Shown here: positions 11,431 to 63,888 of the stretch, piece by piece
Layout of the letters: each line of letters opens with the position of its first letter
Numbering within the stretch: position 1 is the first letter of the stretch
From: Candidatus Woesearchaeota archaeon
GTDB taxonomy: Archaea > Nanobdellota > Nanobdellia > Woesearchaeales > JABIAG01
Direction: 5' to 3'
NCBI GenBank assembly: GCA_018653365.1
Contig: JABIAG010000001.1
Location: 260,772 to 324,771 of the forward strand
Length of the DNA stretch: 64,000 nucleotides
Made by a program: the position numbers and the translations under genes
Notes under the pieces: model-generated
Told to the model about the DNA's origin: nothing
Seen by the model: the letters and a program-made list of their open reading frames with translations, nothing else
Databases searched by the model: none

Positions 11431-12471
11431 ATGCTCATGAATAAAGTATTAATCCTTGGTGGACGTGGACCAAAATCATTCGGAAGACACGCTGCTAGAA
11501 TTCTAATGCAAAAAGGATATAGAGTATTCATGTCAAGTACAACTCAAGAAGGAGTTAACGAAATAAACGCAAGAGACAATCCTAAACTGGAAGGTTGTTT
11601 AGTAAGAGGATCTGATCATGGAGACATTACTATTGGATTAAACGATTTACACTGTATTCTAGAAAGAGATAATCCCGCATTAGTCTATGATGCATCACAA
11701 GACAGATTTTTGGGAGACTCAATACATGTACATCATGGGATTGTATGTTTACTTAATGGAACACCTTTCTTGTCTGAAAAACCCCTTTGTAATACTGATA
11801 ATTATGGTCAACAAAAATTAAGAGAACTGCAACAATTAAATTATCCTGATCAGGAAAGATTATTCGGAACCCATCTTCCAATGGTTCTAGTGGGAGACGC
11901 GCTAATGGAAGATGAAGTATTTGCAGAACAGGTTCTACAAGCTGACAAGATTGGTTGTTATTGGGTAACAAGAGGTAATACTCAAGGAAAAGTTCCAATT
12001 ATAGATAACTTATTCTTACATACTTTTCCATCCCTATTTGGAAGACACTTGGATTTTGATTTTGAGGATGCAGAAGTCGAAGAGAGAGGAGATTGGGGAC
12101 ACGCAGCCTTTTATGCAACATTAAGAGATATAGTTTATGAAAGTCAAGTTCCTCGAATTATAACTTGCGAATTACATGTACAATATGGTGGAAACTTTAC
12201 TGGATTTGAATTTGATGGGAATTTAGTTGGATTACATCAATATTTGAAAGAGGGAGTTCCTGTAGTACACCCAAAATGGATAGTGCCTTGTTGTCCAACT
12301 ACCGCAATGGAACAGGGAAACGATGGAATTATTGGATCTCAGATAGTGGCACCAATAAGTAATCCTTTAGAATACACTTTAGAAATGAGTTTAAGAAGAG
12401 AACCGGTAGTACCATTATCTGAATCAATAAGATATCAACAAAATCTACAAGAAGTAGTGGATAGTGAGTAA
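11431..12471 (+). CDS. Gfo/Idh/MocA-like NAD(P)-dependent oxidoreductase
   Basis: N-terminal Rossmann motif VLILGGRGPKSFGRHAA and the EKPLC signature. Lys-poor, Arg/His-rich composition atypical for this genome. Confidence 0.45.
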   Translation: MLMNKVLILGGRGPKSFGRHAARILMQKGYRVFMSSTTQEGVNEINARDNPKLEGCLVRGSDHGDITIGLNDLHCILERDNPALVYDASQDRFLGDSIHVHHGIVCLLNGTPFLSEKPLCNTDNYGQQKLRELQQLNYPDQERLFGTHLPMVLVGDALMEDEVFAEQVLQADKIGCYWVTRGNTQGKVPIIDNLFLHTFPSLFGRHLDFDFEDAEVEERGDWGHAAFYATLRDIVYESQVPRIITCELHVQYGGNFTGFEFDGNLVGLHQYLKEGVPVVHPKWIVPCCPTTAMEQGNDGIIGSQIVAPISNPLEYTLEMSLRREPVVPLSESIRYQQNLQEVVDSE

Positions 12472-12515
12472 AGAATAAGAATAAACAATATAAAGGGTTT
12501 GAAATTCTTTATTTC

Positions 12516-13805
12516 ATGGTTAGTGTTAAAGCACTTGCAGTGATGGTATCCTCGCCTTTTATAAGGCTGCATAAAAGTTCTATTCCTCAATCAAGAAGAG
12601 TAACTGAATTATTTATTGATGATGAAGAACGAACATTAGCAAAAGCAAGTATTTGGAGAAGTAATGATCCAATAGTAAATAATATTGCGGTTTTAAGAGT
12701 AAAAGGCACTCATTATGAGATGGGATTTCAACATGGAAGACTTTTAGAAACTGAAGTTAATTCATTTTATAATTCAATGCTAAAGTTAGCAATAGCCTAT
12801 GTTGGAAGAGAGGGGTTGTATGAAGCGTATCATATAATGGAACCATTTATACCTTCTTGCTATAAAGAAGAAATGTTGGGATTGGCACAGGGAGCCAATT
12901 TGCCATTAAGCTCAGTACATTTTGCTCATGTAGTTCCAGCACTAACTGAATATTACCATAGAACACAATTTGCAAGAGGGCTATTTTATAGAAGACCAGA
13001 ACAAAGAGATTTTGTATCACAAACTTGCAGTTTTGTAACTGCCTGGGGCGATGCAACCGTTAATGGAAACATGATTTCACTAAGAAACTTGGATTGGTTA
13101 AGATTTCTAAATGTTCAAAAAACTCCAACAGTAACTGTTTATGAATATGCTGATGGAACTAGTGTAGCAAATTTTGGATTTGCAGGATTTATTGGAAGCA
13201 TAACAGGAATGAATAATCAGGGATTAACTTTTGCAGAAATGGGAGTTACTGACGATCCCAGAGAGACATTAAAAGGAATCCCTTTTATTTTTTTAGCAAG
13301 AGAAATGTTAAGAACAGGTAAAACACTAAATGATGTGGTGAGTATGGCAAGAGAGGCCCCAAGAACTTGTAGTTACGGATACTTACTGGGGTCTGCACAT
13401 GAAAAAAATGCGGTAATGATGATTTCCAACCCTGAAGAGTTTGAAGTTTATAACCCTGGAGAGGATATAAAAGGGTTAAGTTATGGACAATCTGCTTTTT
13501 TCCCAGGAATAAAGAATGTCGTATATGCTGGAATGTTTGATAAACAATTAAATACATCCATTTCTCGAGCTTGGAGTAATATTGATGTCTCCCGAATGCA
13601 ACAGATTGCACATGAATGTGCTACAACTTCTTGTGTACAATCAGCAATAATGTGTCCAGATAAAGACCCCCACGTATTTGGAACAGCATATGTAGCAAAT
13701 GCCAAAGGATTATTTTTAGCAAAAGGGCAAGCAACAAACCGACCATATTTCGGAATAAATTTAGATAAAGTGTTAGCAAATGATGAAAACATTAGAATTA
13801 ACTAA
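12516..13805 (+). CDS. C45-family Ntn hydrolase (acyl-CoA:6-aminopenicillanic-acid acyltransferase-like)
   Basis: Probable nucleophile Cys in QTCSFVTAWG, followed by an NLDW motif. Atypical composition. Confidence 0.5.
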   Translation: MVSVKALAVMVSSPFIRLHKSSIPQSRRVTELFIDDEERTLAKASIWRSNDPIVNNIAVLRVKGTHYEMGFQHGRLLETEVNSFYNSMLKLAIAYVGREGLYEAYHIMEPFIPSCYKEEMLGLAQGANLPLSSVHFAHVVPALTEYYHRTQFARGLFYRRPEQRDFVSQTCSFVTAWGDATVNGNMISLRNLDWLRFLNVQKTPTVTVYEYADGTSVANFGFAGFIGSITGMNNQGLTFAEMGVTDDPRETLKGIPFIFLAREMLRTGKTLNDVVSMAREAPRTCSYGYLLGSAHEKNAVMMISNPEEFEVYNPGEDIKGLSYGQSAFFPGIKNVVYAGMFDKQLNTSISRAWSNIDVSRMQQIAHECATTSCVQSAIMCPDKDPHVFGTAYVANAKGLFLAKGQATNRPYFGINLDKVLANDENIRIN

Positions 13806-27525: not shown

Positions 27526-28860
27526 TTATTCTTTAGTTTGTGTTGATTCATTCATAGCAAAATTTGTTGAAAAAAGAATTGCTTGATCTTCAGTAGGGAA
27601 CATTTGAGAACCACTTGTGTATTTTTCATCAAGGATTTCTATGGCTCTTCTATAAAAACCTTTTATGGTATCTGCATTTTCAGCAAGAATCCAGGTGTTA
27701 TTTACTGGATTGATAACTCCTTCTTGTTTCTTTTTCCAAATTTTCCAACGTGAAGGTTTCCTACTTTGAGGTTGCCATTCAGTACTAAGGGCATTAGCTA
27801 ATTTGCTTTTTGCTGCTTGCATGGCTTTAGCACTAGCAAGAACTGGATCGTTAGCTTCTGTTTCTGATATGTAAGCAGTTAGGTCTCCATCATAACCTTG
27901 ATCAAGTCTATCTTTTGCTCTTTGAGCAACTCCCTCTCTTGCACGTCTATGGGAATTTACTCCTCTATCAGAAAGACCTGTAAAACCAAAATAGTTGTCT
28001 GCAGGTTTTTCTTCAATCGCAAGTTCGTAATCAGTTAAAGTTTGAAGATTATTAACGAAAGCATCACCTGTGTTGTTTGCTAAAGCATCAAGTGCAGGTT
28101 CAGCACTCATATCATGATCTTGAAGTGCAGTAACTATGTTATCTCTTAACCCTTGGATTGCGGTTTGAAGTCGTCTAGCTCCCCCCTCTCCTAAACTTCC
28201 AATATGAAGTTCATTTAAAGGACAAATATAACGATCATCTTCTTTTCTCCAGGTAGTATAATCTGTTGGAATAATTGGTTGAGGAACTTTTGCATCAGGA
28301 TCAATACTTACTGCGGGCATAAATCTTTCTATTAGTGTTGGATCTTGTTGAGTGTATCTTCCAAGCTCATCAAGTAAGTGAGCAGCTTGAGGAAAAGCAG
28401 CATTAGGTGAAGATGTAACGTTTTCTAACCAATCATGTAAGTCAGAAAGATGCCAGGGCTGACGAGCTTGCATTCTTGCATTACCACAAAGAGTTGCATA
28501 ATCTTGAGCTCTTCGTTCAGCACCAGTTCTAGAAAAACCACCAAATTGAGCTTCATCATCATCATCACAAAAAGGATCATTAAACATACCATTATCATAA
28601 GTAGTCCAGTTAGCAACATCAGAAGCATTTACAAGGCCAGTAATTGCATCTTCAATCAAATCAGCTCTTGCAATACGATCTGTTGCTTCATATTCTTGTC
28701 TAACAATTGCTTCTTTAGAATCTTGTCCATGAAAAATTTCTTTTATTAAATCAACGGTGTGAGGAATTGCTGTTGTTAGACCCATACCTATTGCAAGTGC
28801 AACGGCTCTTTTACGAACTCTTGGGTTTTCTGTTGGAGATCCTCTTGGTTCTGGTGTCAT
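27526..28860 (-). CDS. hypothetical protein (Lys-poor, Ala/Asp/Gln-rich)
   Basis: 444-aa ORF with no motif I recognise. Co-directional with, and 43 nt downstream of, the radical SAM gene. Confidence 0.5.
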   Translation of the reverse strand: MTPEPRGSPTENPRVRKRAVALAIGMGLTTAIPHTVDLIKEIFHGQDSKEAIVRQEYEATDRIARADLIEDAITGLVNASDVANWTTYDNGMFNDPFCDDDDEAQFGGFSRTGAERRAQDYATLCGNARMQARQPWHLSDLHDWLENVTSSPNAAFPQAAHLLDELGRYTQQDPTLIERFMPAVSIDPDAKVPQPIIPTDYTTWRKEDDRYICPLNELHIGSLGEGGARRLQTAIQGLRDNIVTALQDHDMSAEPALDALANNTGDAFVNNLQTLTDYELAIEEKPADNYFGFTGLSDRGVNSHRRAREGVAQRAKDRLDQGYDGDLTAYISETEANDPVLASAKAMQAAKSKLANALSTEWQPQSRKPSRWKIWKKKQEGVINPVNNTWILAENADTIKGFYRRAIEILDEKYTSGSQMFPTEDQAILFSTNFAMNESTQTKE

Positions 28861-28903: not shown

Positions 28904-30244
28904 TTATGCTTGGGTGTTTTGAGGTGGGTTGTATGTTGCTAATTCTTCATTAAACTCAACATAACGTGGGTGCCAGTTCTCCGGCCACATTTGTTTAGCA
29001 ATTTGTTCACTAAGTAAACATAATGTTGAACGAACACTTCCTGCACGCTTTTGTTTTTCTAACAAAGCAAGATAATTCTGGTAATCTGGAAATTGAGTCA
29101 TTCTTTCTCTAATTGCATGAATGTTGTTTGCATAACCAATTCCCTCTATGCCTTCTTCAGAAACAAAATAACGATTAAGGGATGCTCTTATCTCTTGACT
29201 TTCGGGATCATCAAATTCAGTGTTATAAGGCACAACGTTTCCTATTGAATTAGTGTTGGGATAAACTTGAGAAATAGACATTCGCCTTTCCAAATTAGGA
29301 TCTAATCTAAACACTCGGTCTAGAGCTTCAACAATTGTATAGAGCCAGGGAATTCCAGTATGTTCTCCTTGTGCTAAACCGGCTCTTTCAAGAAGTGGGT
29401 CTGCTCTTAAGTGTTCATGCAAATATCCTTGTAAGGTGTATTGTTTTCTGTTTAAAGGTAAGACTGTAAAGTTAGTTCCTAACGGACTAAACCAAGTAAT
29501 CGTATCAACAAATTGCTGAATGGATTGTTCTTCTGTTAAACCGGGCATGCCAATAATTACATCTGGAGATGCTTTAACATCATATCTACGCATTAGCTCA
29601 ACAGATTTAACAATTTGTTCTCTAGTCAAATCTTTGTTTAACCAATGATTCAAAACAAATTCATCTGAAGTTTCTGCTCCAAATTCAAGAGTAAATTTGG
29701 TATCACCAAAACACCTTCTTAAAAGTCGAAGTCGATCTTCTGTAACATCTGTTGCTCTTACCTCAAATACATAACCTAATTTTGGGGGTTTAGATAATAT
29801 TGGAGTTTCAAATAATTCTAAAAATGTTTCTTCTGGAGTTTCTGTTGGACAAAACATATTGTAATTTGAAATTAATTCTTTTGGTCTCAGTGGATCTGGT
29901 TGTTCGCCTCTTGCGTTTGTAAAACTTCTTTTCATCACTTTTCCATACAAGTCAACATCTCTTTCTCTTAAAACCATCATTGCCGCTGCACCTGCTGTGA
30001 ATTCAGAATGATAGTCACATATACTACACCCTGCAAATTCACCTTCATTATTTCTGTGAACACAACCCAGAGAAGGTAAAAGACTTAGACTGCCGTGCTC
30101 ATATTGATATCCGCCCATGAGACAGGTTTCAGTTGCTTCTGCAACTAACTCTTCAGTGGAAAGTGCAGTTAATCTATCCTGATTTTGTTTGGAATTTGCT
30201 GAAACTGGTTCCCATATTTTTTTAATTACATCTTCTATAAACAT
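28904..30244 (-). CDS. radical SAM protein, YhcC/TIGR01212-like (Elp3-related) with CX11CX2C cluster motif
   Basis: GCVHRNNEGEFAGCSIC has the spacing C-x11-C-x2-C. DVIIGMPGLTEEQ matches the radical-SAM hhGhPGET motif. C-terminal ~130 aa has no recognisable domain. Confidence 0.55.
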   Translation of the reverse strand: MFIEDVIKKIWEPVSANSKQNQDRLTALSTEELVAEATETCLMGGYQYEHGSLSLLPSLGCVHRNNEGEFAGCSICDYHSEFTAGAAAMMVLRERDVDLYGKVMKRSFTNARGEQPDPLRPKELISNYNMFCPTETPEETFLELFETPILSKPPKLGYVFEVRATDVTEDRLRLLRRCFGDTKFTLEFGAETSDEFVLNHWLNKDLTREQIVKSVELMRRYDVKASPDVIIGMPGLTEEQSIQQFVDTITWFSPLGTNFTVLPLNRKQYTLQGYLHEHLRADPLLERAGLAQGEHTGIPWLYTIVEALDRVFRLDPNLERRMSISQVYPNTNSIGNVVPYNTEFDDPESQEIRASLNRYFVSEEGIEGIGYANNIHAIRERMTQFPDYQNYLALLEKQKRAGSVRSTLCLLSEQIAKQMWPENWHPRYVEFNEELATYNPPQNTQA

Positions 30245-30859
30245 TTATATCACCTTCACTCTGTCATTTAATGGTTCTCTGTTGGGTTTGCCACCAAGTT
30301 CGTTCTTAGGGTATCCAAATCTTATTCCGCTAACTAATTGAAAATCTTTTTTATTAATTTTAACCCAATCATAAATTTCTGGATTGATCCCTGTTTCGAG
30401 TAAATCTCCAGTAATGCAGGCTCCAATTCCTAAATGGTGCGCGGTTAAAGCCATGTTTTGTAATACGCAACCAATGTTGACGAGATCACTATATGCAAAG
30501 CCTCCAACATTTAAAAAATATGATTTAACTTTGCCTCCATAAAACCTGGGATCAACAAAAATTGATCTTCGCTTTTCAAAAAATATTGCTACAATTGCTT
30601 TTGGAATGTTTGTTTCATTAAATTCTTTTTGATCTATAAGTAGGTTTTTCCCTTCTGGGCGTTCAGGAGTTTTAGCATTCATTATTTTATGAATTAACTT
30701 TTTATTTTTTATAACAACAAAATACCAGGGCTGTGAATTTTTAGAACTTGGGGCATAATGGCCATGTTCTAATATTTTTGAAATTGTCTCATCCGAGATT
30801 TCTTTATTTTCATCATACAATCTTACGGATCTTCTATCCTTTATTGTTTTTAGTATCAT
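30245..30859 (-). CDS. nitroreductase-family protein
   Basis: RRSVRLY...APSSKNSQPWYFVVI FMN-binding nitroreductase motif. Its stop abuts the radical SAM start. Confidence 0.75.
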   Translation of the reverse strand: MILKTIKDRRSVRLYDENKEISDETISKILEHGHYAPSSKNSQPWYFVVIKNKKLIHKIMNAKTPERPEGKNLLIDQKEFNETNIPKAIVAIFFEKRRSIFVDPRFYGGKVKSYFLNVGGFAYSDLVNIGCVLQNMALTAHHLGIGACITGDLLETGINPEIYDWVKINKKDFQLVSGIRFGYPKNELGGKPNREPLNDRVKVI

Positions 30860-31416
30860 TCTTATCCCCTTCGGTATGCATGTTCTTTTGTGAGGGGCAG
30901 GGTTTTTTCAAACCTTTTTGTAACAAAAGGAAATAAACCGTGTCCCATTTTACTCCCTTGTGGGGCCATGGTCATGATTACTGCATGTCTTCTGACTGTG
31001 GGTTTTTCATATGTTTGAAGTTTGCTTTTCATTGTTTGATAACTCATTTTGAATTGCCTCTTAAATACCAAATTCCTAATTCTTGATTGAGGTTTTTGGA
31101 TGGTTGTTTTTTCTTTCTTTTACGATATTCAATTTGTTCTTCAATCTCATCTGCGGTGGGATCTGCTGCTCTTGACATTTTAATTTGTACTGGGCAAATA
31201 CCAAATTCCCTTTTCTTGAGATAGGTTTTTTGAACACTTGTGTTTGAGTGCTTTGTATTGACTTTCCAGGTATTGTTTTGCTATCATTTGTTTCACCTCT
31301 TTCCACTTACAAGTGGTAACTATGTTATTAGTAAAGTGCAGGTGTTATTTATATATTTCTAGAGAAACGCCTTAAATAAGGGTAATCTTTATATATAGTG
31401 CCTTATTAATTAAGGT

Positions 31417-31899
31417 ATGCCGGTTAAAACAAGCTTAAAATCAAGAGCAATTGATGAAATAGACAAAAAAATCTTGATGATACTGCAAGATGATGGACGA
31501 GAACAACTAACTTCTATCTCAAAGAAGGTTGGACTAAGTATAGATTCTGTACATAAACGAATAAAAGAGATGATGAGAAAAGATATTGTCGGAATAACCA
31601 CCTCTATAGATCCAAGAAAGATTGGGTACGACCTTATTGCCGATAATAAAATACGGCTAAAGAATGTGAGTGCTGAAGAGAGAACTCAATTTATAAGATA
31701 TTTGCAACAACATAATAGAGTGATAGATATATTTGCACTAATGGGGGACTATGATCTTACCTGTGTATTAATAGCAAAGGATTCAAATGAACTCGAGAAA
31801 TTAATAACTGAAATAAGACAAAAGTTTAGAGACCTAATTGATGAATGGAAAAGTTTGCTAGTATTAAAAACATATAAAATAGATCGCTACGATCTTTAA
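31417..31899 (+). CDS. Lrp/AsnC-family transcriptional regulator
   Basis: IDKKILMILQDDGREQLTSISKKVGLSIDSVHKRIKEM HTH plus a C-terminal RAM domain. Confidence 0.8.
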   Translation: MPVKTSLKSRAIDEIDKKILMILQDDGREQLTSISKKVGLSIDSVHKRIKEMMRKDIVGITTSIDPRKIGYDLIADNKIRLKNVSAEERTQFIRYLQQHNRVIDIFALMGDYDLTCVLIAKDSNELEKLITEIRQKFRDLIDEWKSLLVLKTYKIDRYDL

Positions 31900-33263: not shown

Positions 33264-33301
33264 GAAGATATATGCGTCTAAACAGTATAATAATCTTTTG
33301 T

Positions 33302-33775
33302 TTAAGCAACTTTCTCTTTCCAATTAGAATTAACCTTTTCTAAAAAAGGCAACATTTTTGGTTTGAATTCAGAATTCCAAAAATTAATTGCATTATCAAT
33401 AAATGCACCTTCTTGAAGTTTGTCTTTCTTTAAACCAATTAAAGTATTAGAACTAGTAATTTGAACAAGTTTATTCATTATGTTAAGTAATTCAGTTCGT
33501 TCCTCTTCACTAAACAACTGATGTTCAGTCATAGATAAAAGTGAGTTTGGGATAGGCATAACAATTCCATGAAGGTAACCAATCCAAGAATTATAAGTGT
33601 CAGTAATCCTTTTACAAATTTGTCTGGAAAGTTGAACACTAACAAAACCTTCATGTTGAACAAAATCTTTAATGAAAAAAACTTCATCCAATTCATCAAG
33701 TGTTACATTAAATTTAAGAGTTTGTTTAAGTTTAGTAAACTCTTCATTTAGTGTTATTAGTAATTCTTTTTTCAT
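33302..33775 (-). CDS. hypothetical protein
   Basis: 157-aa ORF upstream of and co-directional with zwf. Confidence 0.4.
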   Translation of the reverse strand: MKKELLITLNEEFTKLKQTLKFNVTLDELDEVFFIKDFVQHEGFVSVQLSRQICKRITDTYNSWIGYLHGIVMPIPNSLLSMTEHQLFSEEERTELLNIMNKLVQITSSNTLIGLKKDKLQEGAFIDNAINFWNSEFKPKMLPFLEKVNSNWKEKVA

Positions 33776-34556: not shown

Positions 34557-35168
34557 TTATTCTTGTAAAAATTCAATTAAACCACGATGACGTATGGCAC
34601 TAACCATTGCACGATAATGATCTTCAAAAGTATCCAGGTTTATTTCTGCTCTACTTAAAAGTCTTTTTCCATAAGTGTTTTTAGGACAAAACTCGACCTT
34701 TTCTCCTGCTGGACGAAATTTACGACATTCTGCCCCAGTAATTTCAGCAATTCTTGCTCTAAACTTACTTTTCTCATTTTCTAAATCCTGGGTTGCGAAT
34801 TGGTCTATTGTGCTAAAACCCATTTTTGTGACTATATTTATTACACTATACGCAGAATGTACAAGTTGAAGTAATCTTAAATCTTCTTTGTCAAACTCAT
34901 ATCCGTCCTGTTGAAGTTGTCTATAAGATTTTAAACATTCTAGTATAAACGTTCTGTCACTCCAACCGAGTATTTGAGTTTGCACTCTTTGTTCCCATAA
35001 GTCTGCATTTAGAGTTGCAACAATTTTCGGAAGGGTCTGAGGTCCTGAAGTAACCGCATGAACGATTAAACCTGTCTTATTCCTATTTATCAAATCTGCA
35101 TGTTGTACACAAGAAGGTGCGTCTGTTAACAACTTTCTTGTCCTGGTCGCTACCTCATAAACGTTCAT
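34557..35168 (-). CDS. hypothetical protein (Lys-poor)
   Basis: 203-aa ORF divergent from the CARF-HEPN gene. Confidence 0.4.
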   Translation of the reverse strand: MNVYEVATRTRKLLTDAPSCVQHADLINRNKTGLIVHAVTSGPQTLPKIVATLNADLWEQRVQTQILGWSDRTFILECLKSYRQLQQDGYEFDKEDLRLLQLVHSAYSVINIVTKMGFSTIDQFATQDLENEKSKFRARIAEITGAECRKFRPAGEKVEFCPKNTYGKRLLSRAEINLDTFEDHYRAMVSAIRHRGLIEFLQE

Positions 35169-35181: not shown

Positions 35182-36534
35182 TTGTCTAATCTTAAAAAGA
35201 TTCTGGCATTTACCAAAGATTTAAAAAAGAGGTTAAATTGCTTTAATTCTTATATGGCAAGTGGATTAATTCTAGCACCTGGTTTAGACGAGTTTATGGC
35301 AGAATTTACTGTAAAAGAGATCAAGGCAGATCATGTAGCTTTCATGGCAACAGAAGCCACAGTAGAATTAATTCATCATGTTGTGGAAAAATTAGAGATA
35401 AAATCATATAAAACATTCTTTGTAAAAAACATAATCAGTACATCTGAAGCAATAGAAGAATTCATCAACGCATTTCAATGGCTAAAAGAAAAAGAGTGTA
35501 CTAAAATAACAGTAGACGCAACAAATTGTATAACTGTAATGGAAATGGCAACCTATGTTGCAGCAAGTTTAATGGACCTGTTTGAAAAAGGAGAAACTGA
35601 ACACGAAGTGAACTTAGTGTATGTACATTCAGATTTTGAAATTAAAAAAGATGGAGTTGCGGGAGAGGTAAGGGGAACAGAACGATTAATTGAACTAGAA
35701 AAGCCATTAGATAGTTTAGGAATTATCTTGGCACACGACGCAATACATGCATTTAATAGTAACCGATACGTACAAGCTGCAGAAAACTTTAAAGTATTGG
35801 GAGAGAATTCCACTTCTGATAAATCATTATTTTACCGAGGGTTGAAACACCTGTCTCAGGCATACAATTTTTGGGATAAAATGAACTTTAATGATGCACT
35901 ACTTGCTTTGAAAAAAGCAGAAGATGAACTTAATAGAGTGTGGTACACAAGAAACAAAAGTGCTTTTTCCCATGTGAAAGAAAACATTAAGGTTCTAGAA
36001 GAACTAAAAAACCATAATGAACTTGCAGTAATAATTGACCTGTACATGAACGCAGTAAGACGACAAAAATCAGAAAGGTATGATGACGCTCTCGCAAGAC
36101 TTTATGCGTGTGTTGAAAGAATTTCACAACACCAATTAAAAGAACATGGAATTGTTACAAAAAATCCAGATTATTCTAACTTACCTAAAGAGGTTAAGGA
36201 TAGATTTGAAAAAGAGATCGGACTACCTAAAGAATTAGAACTGAAAAAAGGACTGTATCTATTATCTTTGCTAAATGATCCAATAGGAAAAGAAGTACTA
36301 GGTCTGCGTTACAAGTCAATAGTCGGAATTATTGGATTACGTAATACCTCAATACTAGCACATGGAATAAAACCCATCGGTGAGAAAAACTTTCTTGATT
36401 TCAAAGAAAAATTATCAGATAAACTATACAATGCATTCTTATTACATTATAAAATGGGAGCAGGATTTATTGATGGCCATAAACACATAAAACTCTCAAA
36501 TGTACGTGATTTGATGTATAAAGAAAGATTTTAA
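35182..36534 (+). CDS. CARF-HEPN protein, Csx1/Csm6-like (orphan, no cas context in window)
   Basis: N-terminal Rossmann-like CARF pattern (LILAPGLDEF ... KITVDATNCITVMEMA). Central YMNAVRRQKSERYDDALARLYACVE helix is typical of Csx1/Csm6 HEPN. C-terminal RNTSILAHG contains the R-x4-6-H motif. Confidence 0.5.
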   Translation: MSNLKKILAFTKDLKKRLNCFNSYMASGLILAPGLDEFMAEFTVKEIKADHVAFMATEATVELIHHVVEKLEIKSYKTFFVKNIISTSEAIEEFINAFQWLKEKECTKITVDATNCITVMEMATYVAASLMDLFEKGETEHEVNLVYVHSDFEIKKDGVAGEVRGTERLIELEKPLDSLGIILAHDAIHAFNSNRYVQAAENFKVLGENSTSDKSLFYRGLKHLSQAYNFWDKMNFNDALLALKKAEDELNRVWYTRNKSAFSHVKENIKVLEELKNHNELAVIIDLYMNAVRRQKSERYDDALARLYACVERISQHQLKEHGIVTKNPDYSNLPKEVKDRFEKEIGLPKELELKKGLYLLSLLNDPIGKEVLGLRYKSIVGIIGLRNTSILAHGIKPIGEKNFLDFKEKLSDKLYNAFLLHYKMGAGFIDGHKHIKLSNVRDLMYKERF

Positions 36535-38369: not shown

Positions 38370-39137
38370 ATGAAATGGGTAATTCTTACGTTGATGTTAT
38401 TGTTATTGGTAGCGTGTAGTTCAGACATACCCAATAATGAAACTGTAAATGAAACTGTTGTTGAGGAAGTTCCTGAGACTCCTGAAGAAATGTACAAAAC
38501 AAATGGTGACTTCATACCCAAAGTAAATTCTGAAACAGCTTATCCTGAATTAAATCAAACAATGAAAATAAGAACTGCAGTACAAAATTATGGGGTTAGT
38601 GTAATTAATAATACTATGAGTTATACTTTGAAAATGACTCGATTAGAAGAAATAGTCTATGAAAAATCTGAAAGCGTGAATATTAATCTTCTAGCAACAG
38701 AAGAACTAGAACTGCATGAATTTGAATACACTTTTGACAGATACGGCGAATTTGATATTGAATTAATAGTAGATGAAAAAAACACAACTCATGAATTAAA
38801 AGAAGATAATAATGTTGAAGTGTTTACTGTTTATGTGAGGGCAGTAGTAGATGAACCTGATTCTGATGATGACGATGATGAAGATGAACCTCCCGAAACG
38901 GGATTGGATAATGATGACGCAAAAGATGAAGTATCAGCAAATGGTTGTTACGATTCAGATGGTGGAAAAGAATATGGTACAACTGGAATCTGTTATGATG
39001 ATGTTAGTTTTGAAAATGGACGAGCTGATTTTTGTGCTGGGGATGAAAGATTGGCAGAAGGTTTTTGTGAAGCCAAAGCATGTAATTTTGAGGTAAAAAC
39101 GTGTAGTGGTGTGTGTCGCGATGGTAAATGCGTTTAA
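38370..39137 (+). CDS. secreted lipoprotein with poly-acidic segment and Cys-rich C-terminal domain
   Basis: Signal peptide with lipobox LLVAC. Acidic run DEPDSDDDDDEDEPPE. 8 Cys in the last 70 aa. Confidence 0.5.
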   Translation: MKWVILTLMLLLLVACSSDIPNNETVNETVVEEVPETPEEMYKTNGDFIPKVNSETAYPELNQTMKIRTAVQNYGVSVINNTMSYTLKMTRLEEIVYEKSESVNINLLATEELELHEFEYTFDRYGEFDIELIVDEKNTTHELKEDNNVEVFTVYVRAVVDEPDSDDDDDEDEPPETGLDNDDAKDEVSANGCYDSDGGKEYGTTGICYDDVSFENGRADFCAGDERLAEGFCEAKACNFEVKTCSGVCRDGKCV

Positions 39138-39988
39138 TTAAGTAAAGTTTCTAAATCTGTTAAAACTTCTAAAGGAAATGATTGTCCCTTACAATTACAC
39201 CAATCTGGAACTCGAAGATCATTGATTGCTAACGTAGTTTGTCCATCTTTGAAAACATATGCCTCAACAACAGGAACAAGAACATAAGGTTTCTCAGTAG
39301 CAGGATCATAAGTTGGTTTGCCACGTCTTTCATTTCGTCTTTCAAGTCTAATCATGTAATTTGTATTACCAACACTACCCCTAAAAACACGGATATTTCT
39401 AAGCAATAAATTATCCATTAGACCCCATGAATGCCTTGCACTTCCTGCAAGTTTAAGAGCAGCCGAATAAATTCGTTCTCCAGTTTCATCTGATTCCAGA
39501 CCAGTTATTGCAGCATTAAGTCCAGGAGGTAAATCAATTCGATGACTTTGCCTTTTTGGGTTTGAAATTAGTTGTCCAACAAGATCTACCTCATCACAAC
39601 GAGGGTTAAATCGAGTAAAACAAAAATCTAAATTAAAATATGAATTTGTACTAGTTGGATGAACAACCCTCCAACACTCTTCAACGGAAACGTTACTCGT
39701 TCCCATCTGAACCATTGTTGGACCAGCACCCACCCTTCCTAAATCCAATTTTTTTTTATAAGAAAAAGGCGTTATACTTAAAGAACCTGAAGTTCCAGAG
39801 TGATGATGCCACTCAAACCCTGCGGGATTGCCGTTTCTACGATAATCAACACTAGCAACATATAATTTTTCGTTAAAAATACCTGCTTTAATCTTCTCAT
39901 GCCAAAACTCACCTTTAAAATCTATTCCAGTTTCTGCAGCAGCTTTAACTCCCTCATATAATTGACAAACAAATTGAGCATTATTCAT
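39134..39988 (-). CDS. hypothetical protein (Lys-poor)
   Basis: 284-aa ORF with atypical composition. Confidence 0.4.
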   Translation of the reverse strand: MNNAQFVCQLYEGVKAAAETGIDFKGEFWHEKIKAGIFNEKLYVASVDYRRNGNPAGFEWHHHSGTSGSLSITPFSYKKKLDLGRVGAGPTMVQMGTSNVSVEECWRVVHPTSTNSYFNLDFCFTRFNPRCDEVDLVGQLISNPKRQSHRIDLPPGLNAAITGLESDETGERIYSAALKLAGSARHSWGLMDNLLLRNIRVFRGSVGNTNYMIRLERRNERRGKPTYDPATEKPYVLVPVVEAYVFKDGQTTLAINDLRVPDWCNCKGQSFPLEVLTDLETLLN

Positions 39989-40063: not shown

Positions 40064-40513
40064 ATGCAAAGAACATATTTTAGAGCAATGTCTACTAGAG
40101 AATATCAGATTTGGGAAGGACAAGAACGTGTAGATTCTGGACTGGATTGGACAGAGTTAACAATCGCAAGATTTGGAGGGTATCCCTTAAGTACATTAAA
40201 AGAATCCATAGACTCTGGATTACCTGGCTGGGGACCACATGATGTGATGATTAAGTTAGTGAGTTCTGAGCCAGGGGAGTTTATGTTAAAAACAATGGAA
40301 GAACAACTTGGGGAGGGAGCTGGTTTTGATCTCATGGTACCCTACAGATACATGAATTTTGCTCCACTATCATTTAGTAAAGTACATGTTGTTTACGATC
40401 CTCGTGCAGAAGTTTCACCAAAACCAGTTGATGAATTAGAACAGTTTAGAGAAAAAGGGTTATGGGAATGCATGTCTGAGTGTTTGAAAGAAATGTTTGG
40501 AAAGTCTCATTGA
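40064..40513 (+). CDS. hypothetical protein (Lys-poor)
   Basis: 149-aa ORF with atypical composition. Confidence 0.4.
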   Translation: MQRTYFRAMSTREYQIWEGQERVDSGLDWTELTIARFGGYPLSTLKESIDSGLPGWGPHDVMIKLVSSEPGEFMLKTMEEQLGEGAGFDLMVPYRYMNFAPLSFSKVHVVYDPRAEVSPKPVDELEQFREKGLWECMSECLKEMFGKSH

Positions 40514-41229: not shown

Positions 41230-41377
41230 ATGTTTGGGAGGGAGTTGTCTATATATAAATCTTAGTAAATTAAGTGAGGTTGGAGAGGATTTAGTATAAA
41301 AACCGTAGCATTTAAAAAGGAAACAATGGTTCTTAAGATAAATGACAAAAAATATTGTCATAATGAGGAAAAATAAA

Positions 41378-41752
41378 ATGAAAGGAACAGTAAAATTTTT
41401 TGATGGAACCAGAGGATTTGGTTTTATCGCAGGAGAGGATGGCAAAGAGTACTTTGTACACCAAACTGCACTAGGAGAAGGAGTAACATTAAATGAAAAT
41501 GAGGCAGTAACCTTCGAAGTTGAAGAAGGAGATAGAGGTCCTAAAGCAGTTAATGTCGCAAGAGGTGGAGAAGATTCTGCACCTGCTGAAGAAGCAAGTG
41601 AAGATGTTGCAGAAGATGCAGCTGAAGAACCTGCTGAAGAAGCAAGTGAAGAAGTTGCAGAAGATGCAGCTGAAGAACCTGCTGAAGAAGAAGCTGAAGA
41701 AGAAGCACCTGCTGAAGAAGCAAGTGAAGACGAAGCTGAAGACGCAGAATAA
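41378..41752 (+). CDS. cold-shock domain protein (bacterial CspA-like) with acidic tandem-repeat C-terminal tail
   Basis: MKGTVKFFDGTRGFGFI (RNP1-like KGFGFI) and VHQTAL. Start at 41378 follows a GAGGA SD. The tail contains 16-aa AEEASEDVAEDAAEEP repeats. Confidence 0.75.
   Translation: MKGTVKFFDGTRGFGFIAGEDGKEYFVHQTALGEGVTLNENEAVTFEVEEGDRGPKAVNVARGGEDSAPAEEASEDVAEDAAEEPAEEASEEVAEDAAEEPAEEEAEEEAPAEEASEDEAEDAE
41582..41677 (+). repeat. 2 x 48-bp near-perfect in-frame tandem repeat (degenerate third copy to 41752)
   Basis: cctgctgaagaagcaagtgaagatgttgcagaagatgcagctgaagaa occurs twice in a row with one substitution. Confidence 0.7.
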
Positions 41753-41841: not shown

Positions 41842-42402
41842 ATGATTAAGCAAATTCTGTTAACTAGACAACATTGTGAACAGTTAGCTCATGTAAATAA
41901 TGAGGATATTGAATTTAATGGTTTTGGTCTTTTGGTTAGAACTTCAGAAGATATTGCGGTTGTTTCGGAATTAGAGCTTGTTCTGGGTGAAGAAAATAGT
42001 TCAGTTGGTTGGAACCTGCCTACTTTTATGTCGCTTTGGCAAAAGAATCCTGAAAAGTACTCTTTGATAATGGTTCATACGCACTCAAGAAGGTATGGAG
42101 ATGTGATAAGAAAATTTGATCCTTATTGGTCTGTAAGTAGAAGAAATAGTGGACATAAACAAGGAACGGTTTTGGAAAACAGGTTTTATATTTCAAAACA
42201 CCTTGATTCTGGAGATAATGTAACAATGAAATATGGATATGAGAATGGCTTGTTTGAGACTGCTTTGCTTGTTCACCCTGTTGTTGGTTCTGAGGGAGAA
42301 GTAATGACTCCAGCGCATGTTAGAATAACAGCTTATGCTTATGATCCTGCAAGTCTTGGAAATGTTAAGGGTTTAGATCTTGTTATGCTGGCTGAGACGT
42401 AA
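41842..42402 (+). CDS. hypothetical protein
   Basis: 186-aa ORF. Its HTHSRRYGD segment is not a full JAMM motif. Confidence 0.4.
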   Translation: MIKQILLTRQHCEQLAHVNNEDIEFNGFGLLVRTSEDIAVVSELELVLGEENSSVGWNLPTFMSLWQKNPEKYSLIMVHTHSRRYGDVIRKFDPYWSVSRRNSGHKQGTVLENRFYISKHLDSGDNVTMKYGYENGLFETALLVHPVVGSEGEVMTPAHVRITAYAYDPASLGNVKGLDLVMLAET

Positions 42403-43871: not shown

Positions 43872-44474
43872 ATGCCAGAAATAGTGAGACTAACAAGACA
43901 AAGAGAAGAATTAGCATTAGATGTAACCGCATTCTATAGGACAGAATTATCAAAATTGAAAAACGTCTATTTTACACCTGAAAGAGTAAGAGAAATGTTG
44001 GCAAAAAGAAATTTAACTTATTTTCAAGAACTAGCAAGACAAGGAAATTTAAAAGTAACACCCAAACAACCTGTAACTAGAGTACAGCTTGCTTTGGATG
44101 GAGAACAATTAGTCGGAGTAAGAGAAACAACCGATTACGCAATGGAACAGGGGGGAGAGGTTGTGGGTTTAACAAGAGCACTAATTTGGTTATTGGCAGA
44201 ACCCAAAGGACGAGGAACAGGCACATTATTACTTAATGATATGATTGAAAATTCAGAAGGTGTTGATGCACTAGCACTTAATGTTGCACAAACAAATAAA
44301 GGGGCTAGAAAACTTTATCGAGGTAGGGGTTTTGAATACTGTTGTGTCCAACCAGGACATGAAAACCAATTAGTACCTAATCAATTATGGGTAAAACCTT
44401 TAACTCAGTTGGGTTATAAAACACTTAGGGTGGAAAGAAAAAGAGCACTAGCAGAAAAATCCAGTTCTAAATGA
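43872..44474 (+). CDS. GNAT-family N-acetyltransferase (Lys-poor)
   Basis: LAEPKGRGTGTLLL (Q/RxxGxG/A acetyl-CoA motif) and the ARKLYRGRGF motif. Confidence 0.5.
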   Translation: MPEIVRLTRQREELALDVTAFYRTELSKLKNVYFTPERVREMLAKRNLTYFQELARQGNLKVTPKQPVTRVQLALDGEQLVGVRETTDYAMEQGGEVVGLTRALIWLLAEPKGRGTGTLLLNDMIENSEGVDALALNVAQTNKGARKLYRGRGFEYCCVQPGHENQLVPNQLWVKPLTQLGYKTLRVERKRALAEKSSSK

Positions 44475-44526: not shown

Positions 44527-45177
44527 ATGAAAGCAGTGTTAATGTTATATCCAATAAGACAAATTGTAGAAAGAGATCCAGAATTTCCAAGCTTAAGATG
44601 CGAACTGGTGGATGGCTTGAAACGTTACTGGACTCAAAGTTTAAATGGGGTTGTAACTCCTGAAGAATTTGATCAAGATTTTGGGTTAATTAATCGAAGA
44701 TTAGCTAACTACAGAAAACAAGGATTTAATGTGGGATGGATATTTTTCGGTCAAGAAGGTAATCTTGGCAAGCCCGATACATCAACACAAGCTTCACTAT
44801 TTGACATCAGAACAGAAGATGTAAAGCTTTCTGCAGGTTTTACTTATGCAAATTATCGAACAGGAGTGTTCTATTGCGATGCAGAATCAGTACTATCAAC
44901 TTTGCCAAGTTTGGATGATGTTGTAATTGGGGGATTTCATAATAGTGATTGTGTTCCAAAACTTGCAGGTTTATTGAAACAAGCAGGAGTTAAAGCACAA
45001 ACCGATCCAAGATTAACCGATGAAATATTTCTTTATTCTCACAGAATTTTAGAACAAAGACTCGCAAGATATCAAATAGACCATGGTTTTTTAGATTCAG
45101 AAATGAACGAAGATAATCCAGAAGAAATGCGAACTCTTTTTGAAAGAGAAGCCGTAGAAGAAAAACTTTTAATCTAA
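44527..45177 (+). CDS. hypothetical protein (Lys-poor)
   Basis: 216-aa ORF with atypical composition. Confidence 0.4.
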   Translation: MKAVLMLYPIRQIVERDPEFPSLRCELVDGLKRYWTQSLNGVVTPEEFDQDFGLINRRLANYRKQGFNVGWIFFGQEGNLGKPDTSTQASLFDIRTEDVKLSAGFTYANYRTGVFYCDAESVLSTLPSLDDVVIGGFHNSDCVPKLAGLLKQAGVKAQTDPRLTDEIFLYSHRILEQRLARYQIDHGFLDSEMNEDNPEEMRTLFEREAVEEKLLI

Positions 45178-45875: not shown

Positions 45876-46556
45876 TTATAAAGCAGTAGTAATAAGGTCT
45901 TCAATAAAGGGTTGATCTGAAAAATAAGTATGCTCTCGAAATGTAACTACTGGAAATTGGCATTCTTCGTTTAAAGTTCCCCCAAGCCTATCTGCTCTAG
46001 CATGAACTAAAACATCTAAGTAAACATCACCAACAGCTTCTTGAAATTTTCTAAACACAACTGCGGGATGGTTTGCCGTACTCAACCCAGTGTAAAGTCT
46101 TAAAGGTCTCATATGATTAGAAATTACTTGAGTCATATAATCAACTTCGGGTTTTTCAAGACCTAATTCATTTAAAATTTCTAGTGCTGCTTTAGCACCA
46201 ACTTCTGCATGGTTAGGACAAGAAGTAACCCCTCCAAATTTAGTTTGCATAACTGGACGGCCACTCTCAGTTACACAAGCTTTACCAATATCATGTAACA
46301 AAGCACAAGCACCCAATAAATCTCTTTTAGTATAATGGCCAACATTGTGAAAAAAATAAGTTCTTAATCTTGCTCGTACTTCAGGAACTTGAATAAAACC
46401 AAAGTTCAAAGAATCATCCAATGCAGCTTTCACGGCTTTAGTGTGATCTAAAACTGTAGGTTCGGTATGATACTGATTTACATCACGAACATTTGCCAAT
46501 GCCTGGACCTGGGGCTTGATTTCAATTATGCCCATTAAATTCCAAATTGGGATCAT
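45876..46556 (-). CDS. HD-domain metal-dependent phosphohydrolase
   Basis: ALLHDIGK HD motif with downstream His residues. Confidence 0.65.
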   Translation of the reverse strand: MIPIWNLMGIIEIKPQVQALANVRDVNQYHTEPTVLDHTKAVKAALDDSLNFGFIQVPEVRARLRTYFFHNVGHYTKRDLLGACALLHDIGKACVTESGRPVMQTKFGGVTSCPNHAEVGAKAALEILNELGLEKPEVDYMTQVISNHMRPLRLYTGLSTANHPAVVFRKFQEAVGDVYLDVLVHARADRLGGTLNEECQFPVVTFREHTYFSDQPFIEDLITTAL

Positions 46557-51149: not shown

Positions 51150-51761
51150 ATGAACATACTTGGACGAGAAGTAACCGCAAGGAAATATGGGAATTTACCT
51201 TTAATTAATGCATATGTGGCATTAAAAACCGGGGATTGTAAAAAGGAAATGAGTGCTGCTTACGTTTGTCTAGATAATTGTGAAAAGAGATTTATAACTG
51301 CACGGTTCGTTCAAGGACAACCAATTTCAGTTAAAGCAATAGTCCCTGGAGAACTCAGGGTAAGAGAAGATTTGTGTGAATTTGTAAGACAACATGAAAG
51401 TGCAGAATCTTTTATGCAAGCTCTAAGTCAACAATCAGGATATAGACTAATTGTTGAAGGTAATAAACAATCTTTATTTTATCAAGATGATCAAGTGGCA
51501 TTTAGTATACCCTGCGGGTATTCAAATAAAGCGGAGTTGTGGTCTTCCGAAGTTCAACAAAGTTTGGGCCAACTTTGTTCAAGATTTGGTGAAGTCGAAG
51601 CAATAGCAGAAAATGTTCTTTTAGAAAGACTTGTAGAAGATAAAGCATTGAGTGCACAATTAATGAACCCCATGATAATGCAAATGATGTCTTCAACTTT
51701 TGGATCTGAGGGAGAAAGGCTGGTGCGTATCTTAAGAGAAGCTCAAGCAAGACGAAATTAA
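51150..51761 (+). CDS. hypothetical protein (Lys-poor, Gln/Arg-rich)
   Basis: 203-aa ORF with atypical composition. Confidence 0.4.
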   Translation: MNILGREVTARKYGNLPLINAYVALKTGDCKKEMSAAYVCLDNCEKRFITARFVQGQPISVKAIVPGELRVREDLCEFVRQHESAESFMQALSQQSGYRLIVEGNKQSLFYQDDQVAFSIPCGYSNKAELWSSEVQQSLGQLCSRFGEVEAIAENVLLERLVEDKALSAQLMNPMIMQMMSSTFGSEGERLVRILREAQARRN

Positions 51762-51887
51762 ACTTCTTAGAAAGCTTTATAAACACCCTACTTTTTGTAA
51801 GTTGTATACCGTTGATTAATGAAGCCGTAAGGTGGAATGAGGTGACTATTCTTGTTACCAATTATATCAAATGGAGGAGAAAATAAA

Positions 51888-52358
51888 ATGAATCCAGAAC
51901 AATATTTAGAAGCAATAGAATCCGCAACTGCTTCAGGAAAACTAAAAAAAGGTGTTAATGAAGTAACCAAAGCATTGGAACGTGGAACTGCAAAATTAGT
52001 AGTAGCAGCATCTGATGTTTCACCAAAAGAAATAATCATGCACTTACCTTTACTTGCAAAAGAAAAAGGAACTCCTTACGGAGAAGTAGCATCAAAAGAA
52101 GAACTGGGAGCGGCAGCAGGATTACAAAGATCCACAGCAGCAATCGCAATTCTTGATGCAGGAAGTGCAAAAGACCTTCTTAAAAGTATAACTACTGATT
52201 CTGCAAAAGAAGCAAAAGAAGCAGCTCCAAAAGAAGAGAAAGTAGAAGAAAAGAAAGAAGAAGTTAAAGAAGAAAAACCTGCTAAAGAAGAAAAAGCAGA
52301 ATCAAAAGATTCTGAATCTCAGGACAAACCTGAGAAAGCAGAAGAAAAGAAAGAATAA
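51888..52358 (+). CDS. rpl7ae: 50S ribosomal protein L7Ae with Lys/Glu-rich C-terminal extension
   Basis: [44 protein letters not shown] matches the L7Ae core. GGAGG SD 8 nt upstream of the Met at 51888. Carries a ~45-aa KE-rich tail. Confidence 0.85.
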
Positions 52359-55897: not shown

Positions 55898-57181
<1,284 letters not shown>

Positions 57182-62591: not shown

Positions 62592-63353
62592 ATGACTTGG
62601 TTGGCGGAAGCTGAAAGAGATGAACTTGGACTTGAACAAGAATTAACGCAAGAAGAACTTAGTTTACATCATATCCCTCCTGAGCAAAGACCTTCAGAAC
62701 TAGTTTTTTTATTAGAGGATTTTCTTAAACATTTTCAATTAGGTGATGAAGTTCCTGTGAGTTCGGATCTTGGAAATGTTGTAACCGTTGCTTATGAAGG
62801 GGGAATGAAACATTGTTTCTTACATTATGATGCTGAAGATCCAAGACGCGTTTTGACTTATAATGCCCAGGGCGAGAGAGACGCGCGTGTAATCCCTGCG
62901 TTTATTTGTTGTCAGGATTTAATGATGGATGACGAATTATTAGCAAGATATGGGGTGGTGGTAACACGAAAAGATGCACAAGGATTTAATCCCCATTTTT
63001 ATGAACATGCACTTATTTTAAGTAAATGTGGTGAGGGCAATTTAAGAACTAGTATTTCTTTTGAGGGTTTAAGTCATCCAACTGGAACAAGCATGGCAAT
63101 GGATGAATTAACCCTAGCAACGCAAGTAACTGAACGATTAGGTCAAGCATACGGGGTTGATGCAAAACATTTTATTGCATTTGAGGTAATGCGGGATCAA
63201 TATTATCTAGGAGAACAATTACGTCGGACGATTGCAATTTCAGAGGCATTTGATCATTATTTACTCACGTATGCAAATGGTGCAAGATGTCTAATTCAAA
63301 AATACAAACCCGAAATAATGCAAGAAGTTGAAGAACACTCAAAAGTTGCATGA
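62592..63353 (+). CDS. hypothetical protein (Lys-poor)
   Basis: 253-aa ORF with atypical composition. Confidence 0.4.
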   Translation: MTWLAEAERDELGLEQELTQEELSLHHIPPEQRPSELVFLLEDFLKHFQLGDEVPVSSDLGNVVTVAYEGGMKHCFLHYDAEDPRRVLTYNAQGERDARVIPAFICCQDLMMDDELLARYGVVVTRKDAQGFNPHFYEHALILSKCGEGNLRTSISFEGLSHPTGTSMAMDELTLATQVTERLGQAYGVDAKHFIAFEVMRDQYYLGEQLRRTIAISEAFDHYLLTYANGARCLIQKYKPEIMQEVEEHSKVA

Positions 63354-63370
63354 TTATTTCTTAAGAATAA
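63353..63370. repeat. 18-bp direct repeat copy 1 (ATTATTTCTTAAGAATAA)
   Basis: Exact copy of 63888..63905. Contains the palindrome TTCTTAAGAA. Confidence 0.4.
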
Positions 63371-63408
63371 CAGAAAACAATTTAAATCAAGTTTTATTGA
63401 TAAACTGA

Positions 63409-63888
63409 ATGTACTGTTTAAGAAAAAAATTAGCAATTGGCGTTGTTGGAATGGCTGTAGCAGCAACACTTGCTCTTTATTGTACGGCAAATAAACATCC
63501 AAATCCCTTGGTGAGACGATCAGTTGAATTAAATGAGCAAATGGGATTATTTGCCCCCCTTTATCTAAAACGATTCAATTCAAAAGTTCTCGAACAAAGA
63601 GCAGCAATGTTTAAAGAACAAGCAGAACTATCAAAAGACCCAAAAATAAGAAGGGCAGCAATAATAAACAGACACAAAAATGTATTGGGCGGTATGTTGG
63701 CAGGAGGCCTTTTTGCTCTTTCAGCCAGTTACGCTTTAAACAATATACGATTGGGAAAAAGACCTGGTGTGACTCCTGAAGGTGGTGAAGCATATGCTGG
63801 AGAAGATTGTGGCGATTTGCCTCCAAGTTCCGAACCAGCTAAACCACAACCTAGATCTGAAACCTGGTTGGAACGCAATTTTATTTAA
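63409..63888 (+). CDS. hypothetical membrane/secreted protein (Lys-poor)
   Basis: 159-aa ORF with an N-terminal hydrophobic segment. Flanked by 18-bp direct repeats. Confidence 0.4.
   Translation: MYCLRKKLAIGVVGMAVAATLALYCTANKHPNPLVRRSVELNEQMGLFAPLYLKRFNSKVLEQRAAMFKEQAELSKDPKIRRAAIINRHKNVLGGMLAGGLFALSASYALNNIRLGKRPGVTPEGGEAYAGEDCGDLPPSSEPAKPQPRSETWLERNFI

Follow-up and report, generated by a model that had tools for sequence, protein, structure and literature searches.

The window analysed here is a stretch of 64,000 nucleotides from a marine Woesearchaeote of the DPANN archaea (genome about 1.1 Mb, about 33% GC; positions 260,772 to 324,771 of contig JABIAG010000001.1, assembly GCA_018653365.1), in which genes for Arg-rich, Lys-poor proteins lie scattered among genes for Lys-rich ones. 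The open reading frame (ORF) map and family scans place an archaeal gene set in the window, comprising L7Ae, S28e, L24e, EF-2, EF-1alpha, S10, FtsZ and an ATP-dependent DNA ligase, along with XPD helicase, a GINS-associated DHH protein, SRP54 and SerRS. Window proteins have exact matches on contig JABGYM010000008.1 of a further Candidatus Woesearchaeota assembly (GCA_018675265.1, locus tags HN592_), and other assemblies of the region (L015, L016) are more than 99.9% identical. An assembly chimera was rejected, as the identical sequence recurs among the assemblies of more than 50 data blocks, whose contigs reach 1,111,107 bp. The lineage is isolated: the best relatives of its DNA ligase among GTDB species representatives and JGI metagenomes are no closer than 43-54% identity.

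Two composition classes with one codon usage

We computed amino acid composition per gene for 66 non-overlapping ORFs of the window and assigned to an Arg-rich class those in which Arg made up at least half of the Lys and Arg residues (R/(K+R) ≥0.5). An initial annotation, made from the sequence alone, had listed 14 Arg-rich, Lys-poor genes; all 14 coordinate pairs are real ORFs that agree with the NCBI gene calls of GCA_018675265.1, and all 14 fall into the class, together with a fifteenth member that had been missed (45876..46556). R/(K+R) is 0.50-0.64 in these 15 ORFs and 0.45 or less in the other 51. Class members average 4.7% Lys and 6.5% Arg, compared to 10.4% Lys and 3.5% Arg in the remaining ORFs, which agrees in direction with the percentages first quoted (roughly 6% and 8% versus 12-15% and 2-3%), although those values were approximate. 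Within the window, a two-component Gaussian mixture with means of 0.25 and 0.58 describes the raw ratio better than a single component does (Bayesian information criterion −63.4 versus −46.6, a difference of 17), while on the logit scale this preference is marginal.

The two classes also differ in other residues. Ile is halved in the Arg-rich class (4.5% versus 9.0%, p=2.5e-7), Gln is raised (4.4% versus 2.7%, p=1.8e-4), as are Pro and Cys, and a linear discriminant analysis trained without Lys and Arg recovered 12 of the 15 members with three false positives. Because Ile, Gln, Pro and Cys differ and the discriminant works without Lys and Arg, the split is not merely the tail of a Lys/Arg distribution. 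An abundance of Gln, Ala and Asp had been proposed at the outset; it is clear for Gln and weak for Ala (7.2% versus 5.7%, p=0.02), but we found no enrichment of Asp in the class over the rest of the window (4.9% versus 4.8%). The class is predominantly acidic, with a median isoelectric point of 6.0 versus 9.1.

At synonymous positions, the Arg-rich genes are native. GC content at third codon positions (GC3) is 0.14-0.27 in the class, equal to that of its neighbours, whereas the first (GC1, 0.50 versus 0.43) and second positions (GC2, 0.38 versus 0.31) exceed those of the remaining ORFs. Codon choice is nearly identical between classes, with AGA accounting for 67% versus 60% of Arg codons, and the classes differ only in that two-fold codons ending in C are rarer and ATA commoner among the Arg-rich genes, the usual mark of weak expression. 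The class is thus atypical in its amino acids and in GC1 and GC2 while its GC3 and codon usage are native, and because codon usage is native, any transfer would have to be old. These data bear out the early description of the synonymous positions as AT-adapted and of the genes as something other than recent transfers, since their codons are native throughout and they closely adjoin native genes, some with overlapping stop codons.

Genes with R≥K are far more frequent here than in related archaea. Restricting the comparison to ORFs of at least 149 aa, we counted 15 of 60 in the window versus 3 of 69 (4%) in loci of seven other Woesearchaeota and relatives with GC contents of 28-47% (Fisher p=0.0008), in keeping with the initial remark that such genes make up a large fraction of the window. 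Lys exceeds Arg nearly throughout in these relatives; because this holds at all GC values, Lys-richness is a lineage trait rather than a simple read-out of current GC, and the Arg-rich fraction is unusual for Woesearchaeota. Beyond the window, where 18 further genes were reachable, there are two more long class members, a MetK (R/(K+R) 0.59) and a 207-aa orphan ORF (ORFan; 0.68).

Synteny and homologues of the Arg-rich genes

The Arg-rich genes are scattered over the window on both strands. Strong clustering was rejected, as adjacent pairs are not in excess (P=0.17); the densest stretch, at about 34.5-46.5 kb, holds eight class members among 14 consecutive genes (P=0.04). Stop codons of class and native genes overlap or abut at 13798-13805, 34556/34557, 39134-39137, 40507-40513 and 45174-45177.

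We compared synteny for four members, 41842..42402, 43872..44474, 44527..45177 and 45876..46556. In the relative's locus L003, the genes for TP_methylase, FtsZ (74% identical to the copy here), nitroreductase and DNA ligase are contiguous within 5 kb with nothing between them, and L010, L013/L014, L009 and L002 retain parts of this arrangement. Three separate gaps of the block are filled here. The first, between the methylase and cold-shock-domain genes and FtsZ, holds 41842..42402 (+), a 186-aa ORFan with R/(K+R) of 0.53; this gap is empty in relatives, with methylase and FtsZ adjacent in L003. The second separates FtsZ from nitroreductase, genes that lie side by side or almost so in relatives, and holds both 43872..44474 (+), a divergent GNAT acetyltransferase of 200 aa (0.58, 9.0% Arg; Pfam Acetyltransf_1, 9e-5), and 44527..45177 (+), an ORFan of 216 aa (0.62) that shares its last 4 bp with the nitroreductase gene. 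A single-sequence AlphaFold2 model of this ORFan was poor (predicted local distance difference test score, pLDDT, of 54), and its structure matches are meaningless; we would only guess at an isochorismatase-like fold. In the third, 45876..46556 (−), an HD-domain protein of 226 aa (0.57, 4.0% Lys, 5.3% Arg; Pfam HD, 9e-6) with a weak Cas3-HD match in PADLOC, separates nitroreductase from DNA ligase, which are adjacent in five relatives. Absence of all four genes from their syntenic positions holds against L003, L010, L013, L009 and L002, suggesting that they are lineage-specific insertions or, less simply, that they were lost in all five relatives.

We searched large databases for homologues of three class members, the radical-SAM enzyme, the C45-family protein and the product of 36589..38136, and of MetK outside the window. 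An early suggestion of a higher-GC donor for the class, set against vertical inheritance from sister lineages, receives a mixed answer from these searches: the product of 36589..38136 is closest to a sister lineage, while the radical-SAM and C45 proteins have their nearest homologues in bacteria. The radical-SAM gene (28904..30244, −; 446 aa, R/(K+R) 0.64; Pfam Radical_SAM and a weak, distant TIGR01210 match) starts where the native nitroreductase gene 30245..30859 stops. Its 13 relatives are 28-38% identical, the nearest (33-38%) lying in Paenibacillus, Herbinix and Defluviitaleaceae, and the bacterial homologues sit among non-ribosomal peptide synthetase/polyketide synthase and carrier-protein genes. 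R/(K+R) in these homologues tracks genome GC from 0.25 to 0.82, with K>R in low-GC hosts, and because of this the archaeal value of 0.64 is out of line for a genome of 33% GC.

The C45 gene (12516..13805, +; 0.59) encodes a 429-aa autoproteolytic acyltransferase/hydrolase of the N-terminal nucleophile (NTN) fold (NCBIfam NF040521, 3.5e-40; Pfam AAT), and shares its last 8 bp with the native XPD helicase gene. Its nearest homologues, 37-38% identical, come from metagenome-assembled genomes of Desulfobacterales and Hydrogenedentes and have K>R (36% GC locus); more distant ones occur in eukaryote transcriptomes. Transfer at the level of whole operons was rejected for both enzymes, as the bacterial neighbours of their homologues show no similarity to 27526..28860 or 11431..12471, the class members beside them here. 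MetK, of the bacterial/eukaryotic type, lies about 6.4 kb past the 3′ end of the window (L018 16950-18125; R/(K+R) 0.59, GC3 0.21) and has Pfam S-AdoMet_synt_N/M/C domains and matches of about 428 bits to bacterial enzymes in PDB. Its neighbour is the 207-aa ORFan mentioned above (L018 15495-16118; R/(K+R) 0.68), in which Arg reaches 12.1%. Homology and composition together suggest that radical SAM, C45 and MetK fit an old transfer from higher-GC bacteria. Arg-rich does not equate to bacterial, however, because bacterial-type genes of the window, namely G6PD, Bac_transf and Peripla_BP_6, are Lys-rich. The glucose-6-phosphate dehydrogenase gene (G6PD_N/G6PD_C; 31896-33323, −) is fully native in composition, with 13.7% Lys; the family is uncommon in archaea.

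A different pattern is seen for 36589..38136 (+; 515 aa, R/(K+R) 0.53), which follows a native, Lys-rich CARF-HEPN gene of the Csx1/Csm6-like type (35182..36534, +; 10.7% Lys, 3.8% Arg). The product of the latter matches the PADLOC Csx1/CARF_HEPN model (1.4e-55) end to end as well as Pfam Csm6 HEPN and Csm6_6H, and is 49% identical to a copy in L020 that is likewise followed by a gene of the 515-aa family. For the 515-aa protein, a word-indexed search returned only itself and a GTDB scan returned nothing, while exhaustive phmmer recovered 17 full-length metagenomic relatives (26-35% identity) and a fragment 82-84% identical. A family gene directly follows a Csm6_6H/Cas_Cas02710 gene in the window (module at 35182-38136, +), in L020/L021 (37% GC; L020 1281-4080) and in L023 (39% GC; 9-2758), a contig that is archaeal and carries RFC genes. 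Of the two genes, the one for CARF-HEPN is richer in Lys and the one for its 515-aa partner richer in Arg in every one of these genomes, with native GC3. R/(K+R) is 0.42-0.60 across 19 members of the family, and 7 of the 33 Arg positions of the 515-aa protein are conserved as Arg.

This gene is under purifying selection: the fragment in the sister lineage L025 (33% GC; 84% identical), whose downstream neighbours differ, gives a dN/dS of 0.16 over 95 codons. An alignment-based AlphaFold2 model of the protein is mostly helical (pLDDT 82, predicted template modelling score 0.83) and has no significant PDB match, the faint matches being HEPN-type proteins. By our own reading, the family consensus contains a candidate HEPN-like R-x4-H motif (RTVGMH at 314-319). 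No CRISPR array or cas genes were found in the window or near the module in L020 and L023. Conserved gene order suggests that CARF-HEPN and 515-aa genes form a putative, undescribed two-gene HEPN module. The composition of the 515-aa protein is a property of its family and has persisted through deep divergence within low-GC archaea, suggesting constraint or repeated exchange within a gene pool and not a simple lag after transfer, and because of this exception composition alone is not readable as a donor signature.

Remaining members, promoter motif and neighbouring features

The first class member, 11431..12471 (+; 346 aa, R/(K+R) 0.64, 2.9% Lys, 5.2% Arg, GC3 0.20), is co-directional with the downstream C45 gene and, as we read it, carries a candidate N-terminal Rossmann-like motif of the GxGxxG type. 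Directly downstream of the radical-SAM gene lies 27526..28860 (−; 444 aa, 0.62, 11.3% Ala, 8.6% Asp), an ORFan that is the sole sequence in its own 90% cluster and has no match in Pfam, PHROGs, NCBIfam, PADLOC, plasmids, phages, PDB or IMG/VR. Three more ORFans lie near the CARF-HEPN gene or the methylase-FtsZ block: 34557..35168 (−; 203 aa, 0.57), divergent from the CARF-HEPN gene; 39134..39988 (−; 284 aa, 0.58), convergent with a CARDB gene that it overlaps by 4 bp, with no family, plasmid, phage, PDB or IMG/VR match; and 40064..40513 (+; 149 aa, 0.50), whose 3′ end overlaps the native TP_methylase gene. Further downstream, 51150..51761 (+; 203 aa, 0.62, 7.4% Gln) and 62592..63353 (+; 253 aa, 0.64) are also ORFans, the 90% cluster of the latter containing near-identical copies only. 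A SAM-III (SMK box) riboswitch match inside 62592..63353 (62739-62814, +) is below threshold in Rfam (28 bits against a gathering cut-off of 45, E=0.02) and is probably due to chance. The last member is 63409..63888 (+; 159 aa, 0.52), the only one with predicted membrane segments, in the form of two hydrophobic segments.

Searches of Pfam, PHROG, NCBIfam and PADLOC gave no family matches for 11431..12471, 27526..28860, 34557..35168, 39134..39988 and 40064..40513, and 44527..45177, 51150..51761, 62592..63353 and 63409..63888 likewise had no family matches. Most of the class is indeed uncharacterised, as first noted, with 11 of the 15 lacking a Pfam match and four having weak ones. We found no paralogy among class members, and PADLOC reveals no defence theme, matching just the native CARF-HEPN gene and, as a weak Cas3-HD, 45876..46556. 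The suggestion that the class consists of secreted or host-interaction proteins is not upheld: in a crude hydropathy scan a hydrophobic segment appears in 1 of the 15 members versus 17 of the 51 natives, and by the same hydropathy the class members are predicted to be soluble (14 of 15 without such a segment).

Five Arg-rich genes and one native gene (33302..33775) carry the promoter-like motif AATCTT[TC]T[TA]AA (AATCTTTTTAA) 32-34 nt upstream of the start codon, whereas most native genes instead carry AAC(A/C)TTTATA(T/A)A. Sites lie at 35201 and 33809 on the minus strand and at 36557, 40030, 44494 and 51117 on the plus strand, with another at 43840; they include those at −33 of 34557..35168, −34 of 40064..40513 and −33 of 51150..51761. 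The variant may mark a co-regulated subset, its enrichment (p~0.002) being post hoc.

Several other features were recorded in and around the window. The cold-shock-domain gene (41342-41752, +) contains imperfect 12/24/48-nt repeats at 41563-41747 and encodes with them an acidic, Glu/Ala-rich C-terminal tail of low complexity (25% Glu, 17% Ala), and the L7Ae gene (51852..52358) has a comparable Lys/Glu-rich tail at 52205-52317; the window holds no CRISPR or tandem arrays, just these coding low-complexity repeats. At least seven paralogous Peripla_BP_6 substrate-binding proteins are encoded among TrmB-type regulators and ABC permease/ATPase genes at window positions 1-7365 and upstream at L024 11591-20223, a heavy commitment for a DPANN archaeon whose genome measures about 1.1 Mb. 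Two 38-nt direct repeats (31063-31100 and 31196-31233; 82% identical, 133 nt apart) lie in a spacer of about 370 nt upstream of an AsnC-type regulator gene (31417..31899) and may serve in regulation or encode a small RNA; Rfam has no match to them.

Origin of the Arg-rich class

We favour the reading that the Arg-rich genes are accessory genes of long residence, most of them gained by lateral transfer, whose codons have ameliorated while their protein composition has stayed non-native, because it is the simplest account of most of the evidence; we would put its chances at about even. The backbone is Lys/Ile-rich, as is typical of Woesearchaeota whatever their GC, and roughly a quarter of the genes would be lineage-specific accessory genes that entered its intergenic gaps singly or in pairs. 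Lateral transfer, from bacteria as well as from a pool of genes that DPANN archaea share, would probably account for most of them. The acquisition would be old enough for synonymous sites and Arg codons to have come fully into equilibrium with the AT-rich genome and for spacers to have been squeezed out, while purifying selection would keep the protein mix near an 'ordinary' mid-GC one (R≥K, low Ile, more Gln, Pro and Cys). Of the acquisition from a higher-GC donor first proposed, a foreign origin is plausible for several members from the synteny gaps and bacterial homologues, whereas a single donor is unproven. The ORFan members would share this history by extension.

A number of points weigh against this reading. 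AGA to AAA is an easy, conservative and AT-favoured change, and full synonymous amelioration without drift in Lys and Arg requires selection. Lys/Arg composition is homogeneous over the 15 members at about 0.58 (χ2=3.9, 14 degrees of freedom), which is odd for many donors and dates, although the under-dispersion is only marginal after modelling the 0.5 cut-off and is largely an effect of that cut-off. No member of the class in the window has intermediate, elevated GC3. Lag cannot explain the 515-aa gene, because in at least three further genomes of low GC its family is Arg-rich beside a Lys-rich partner, and the missing GC3 intermediates, the uniform Lys/Arg ratio and the persistent composition of this family are not what a simple lag predicts. 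Ten ORFans have no detectable homologue in plasmids, phages, PDB (searched as a concatenation), Pfam, PHROGs or NCBIfam, and therefore no donor can be named for them. The sequence considered amounts to about 84 kb of the roughly 1.1 Mb genome.

The main rival holds that composition is set by function, with the folds or partners of families such as nucleic-acid-binding or defence-type enzymes demanding Arg over Lys and few Ile, and selection maintaining this mix in whatever genome they occur and whatever their origin. We regard this as unlikely for the class as a whole, though it is the alternative to be taken most seriously; it fits the 515-aa family, which stays Arg-rich in L020, L023 and L025 (33-39% GC, native GC3) though its CARF-HEPN partner is Lys-rich, and it fits the dN/dS of 0.16 for 36589..38136, the homogeneous Lys/Arg ratio across the class and the promoter variant at about −33 of five or six members. 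However, Arg-richness is not intrinsic to the radical-SAM and C45 families, which have K>R in low-GC bacteria, and even the 515-aa family keeps Arg at just 7 of 33 Arg positions. The members also belong to unrelated folds (radical SAM, NTN hydrolase, GNAT, HD and Rossmann-like) without paralogy, and share no common domain or defence signature.

Uniformity could also mean that the Arg-rich genes are one coherent cohort, either acquired in bulk from a single mid-to-high-GC partner, perhaps the host, or forming a co-regulated set of fixed composition used in or against the host. We think this improbable; it is raised because the Lys/Arg ratio is uniform, because a promoter variant is common to five or six members and because the class makes up about 20-25% of a genome that is supposedly reduced.

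Two further explanations, ancestral retention with loss elsewhere and a degraded mobile element, rank below function-driven composition. Under the former, the genes would be ancestral in Woesearchaeota and would have survived here but disappeared from the relatives sampled, whose genomes are reduced; their composition would be incidental. In its favour, gene loss has shaped DPANN genomes, the relatives sampled are only distantly related (ligase identity 43-54%), leaving gain and loss unpolarised, and the 515-aa gene has archaeal relatives; nevertheless, all four genes of the FtsZ-ligase block are missing from five separate relatives, ancestral genes would be expected to be Lys-rich, as the lineage is even at 47% GC, and two members are nearest to bacteria, so that we hold this explanation to be distinctly improbable. 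Derivation of the class from an integrated virus, plasmid or genomic island, of which scattered pieces are left, is very improbable: it agrees with the mild clustering of eight members in 14 consecutive genes and with most members being ORFans, but the window contains no integrase, tRNA, flanking repeats or GC3 shift, PHROGs returned only a generic GNAT, phage (tblastn, INPHARED), plasmid (PLSDB) and IMG/VR (27526..28860 and 39134..39988) searches returned no match, and native genes of conserved order are interleaved, so at least three separate insertions within 6 kb would be needed. The two blocks that had been placed beside tRNA genes lose that context, as neither ARAGORN nor Rfam, at its gathering threshold and at E≤0.5, detected a tRNA in the window. 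De novo origin from AT-rich spacer or antisense sequence was rejected by reasoning, since such ORFs would be rich in Lys, Asn, Ile and Phe.

DPANN archaea are usually described as reduced symbionts. If the class consists of old accessory genes, a lineage with about a quarter of its genes added later would indicate that gain as well as loss matters in DPANN. R/(K+R) together with Ile would flag non-backbone genes after codon-based detectors of horizontal transfer fail, which is useful for metagenome-assembled genomes without close relatives. Were the genes instead a single cohort, their protein composition would help to identify the host and to gauge how much gene gain there has been in DPANN.

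The phenomena invoked, gene gain in DPANN and amelioration with a lag at the protein level, are known ones. Lawrence and Ochman are said to have modelled the amelioration of horizontally transferred genes, and as in that model the third positions here have converged on the recipient while GC1, GC2 and amino acids lag. Unlike in the model, there are no cases of intermediate GC3, the Lys/Arg ratio is unusually uniform and one family is Arg-rich in several low-GC genomes. The product of 35182..36534 resembles the stand-alone CARF-HEPN (Csx1/Csm6) ancillary nucleases of type III CRISPR-Cas systems, whose models it matches end to end, but differs from them in having no array or cas gene in the window and in being followed by a partner of about 500 aa from an undescribed family; this likeness concerns one class member. 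A close parallel in gene content is to archaea of the same phylum-level group (PMC8204110, 2021), which similarly combine a reduced backbone with bacterial-related enzymes (here radical SAM, C45 and MetK) and many hypothetical proteins. In contrast to those archaea, most members here are ORFans that lack any homologue in bacteria, some bacterial-type genes (G6PD, Bac_transf and Peripla_BP_6) are as Lys-rich as the backbone, and the added set is recognised by protein composition alone, its codon usage being already native.

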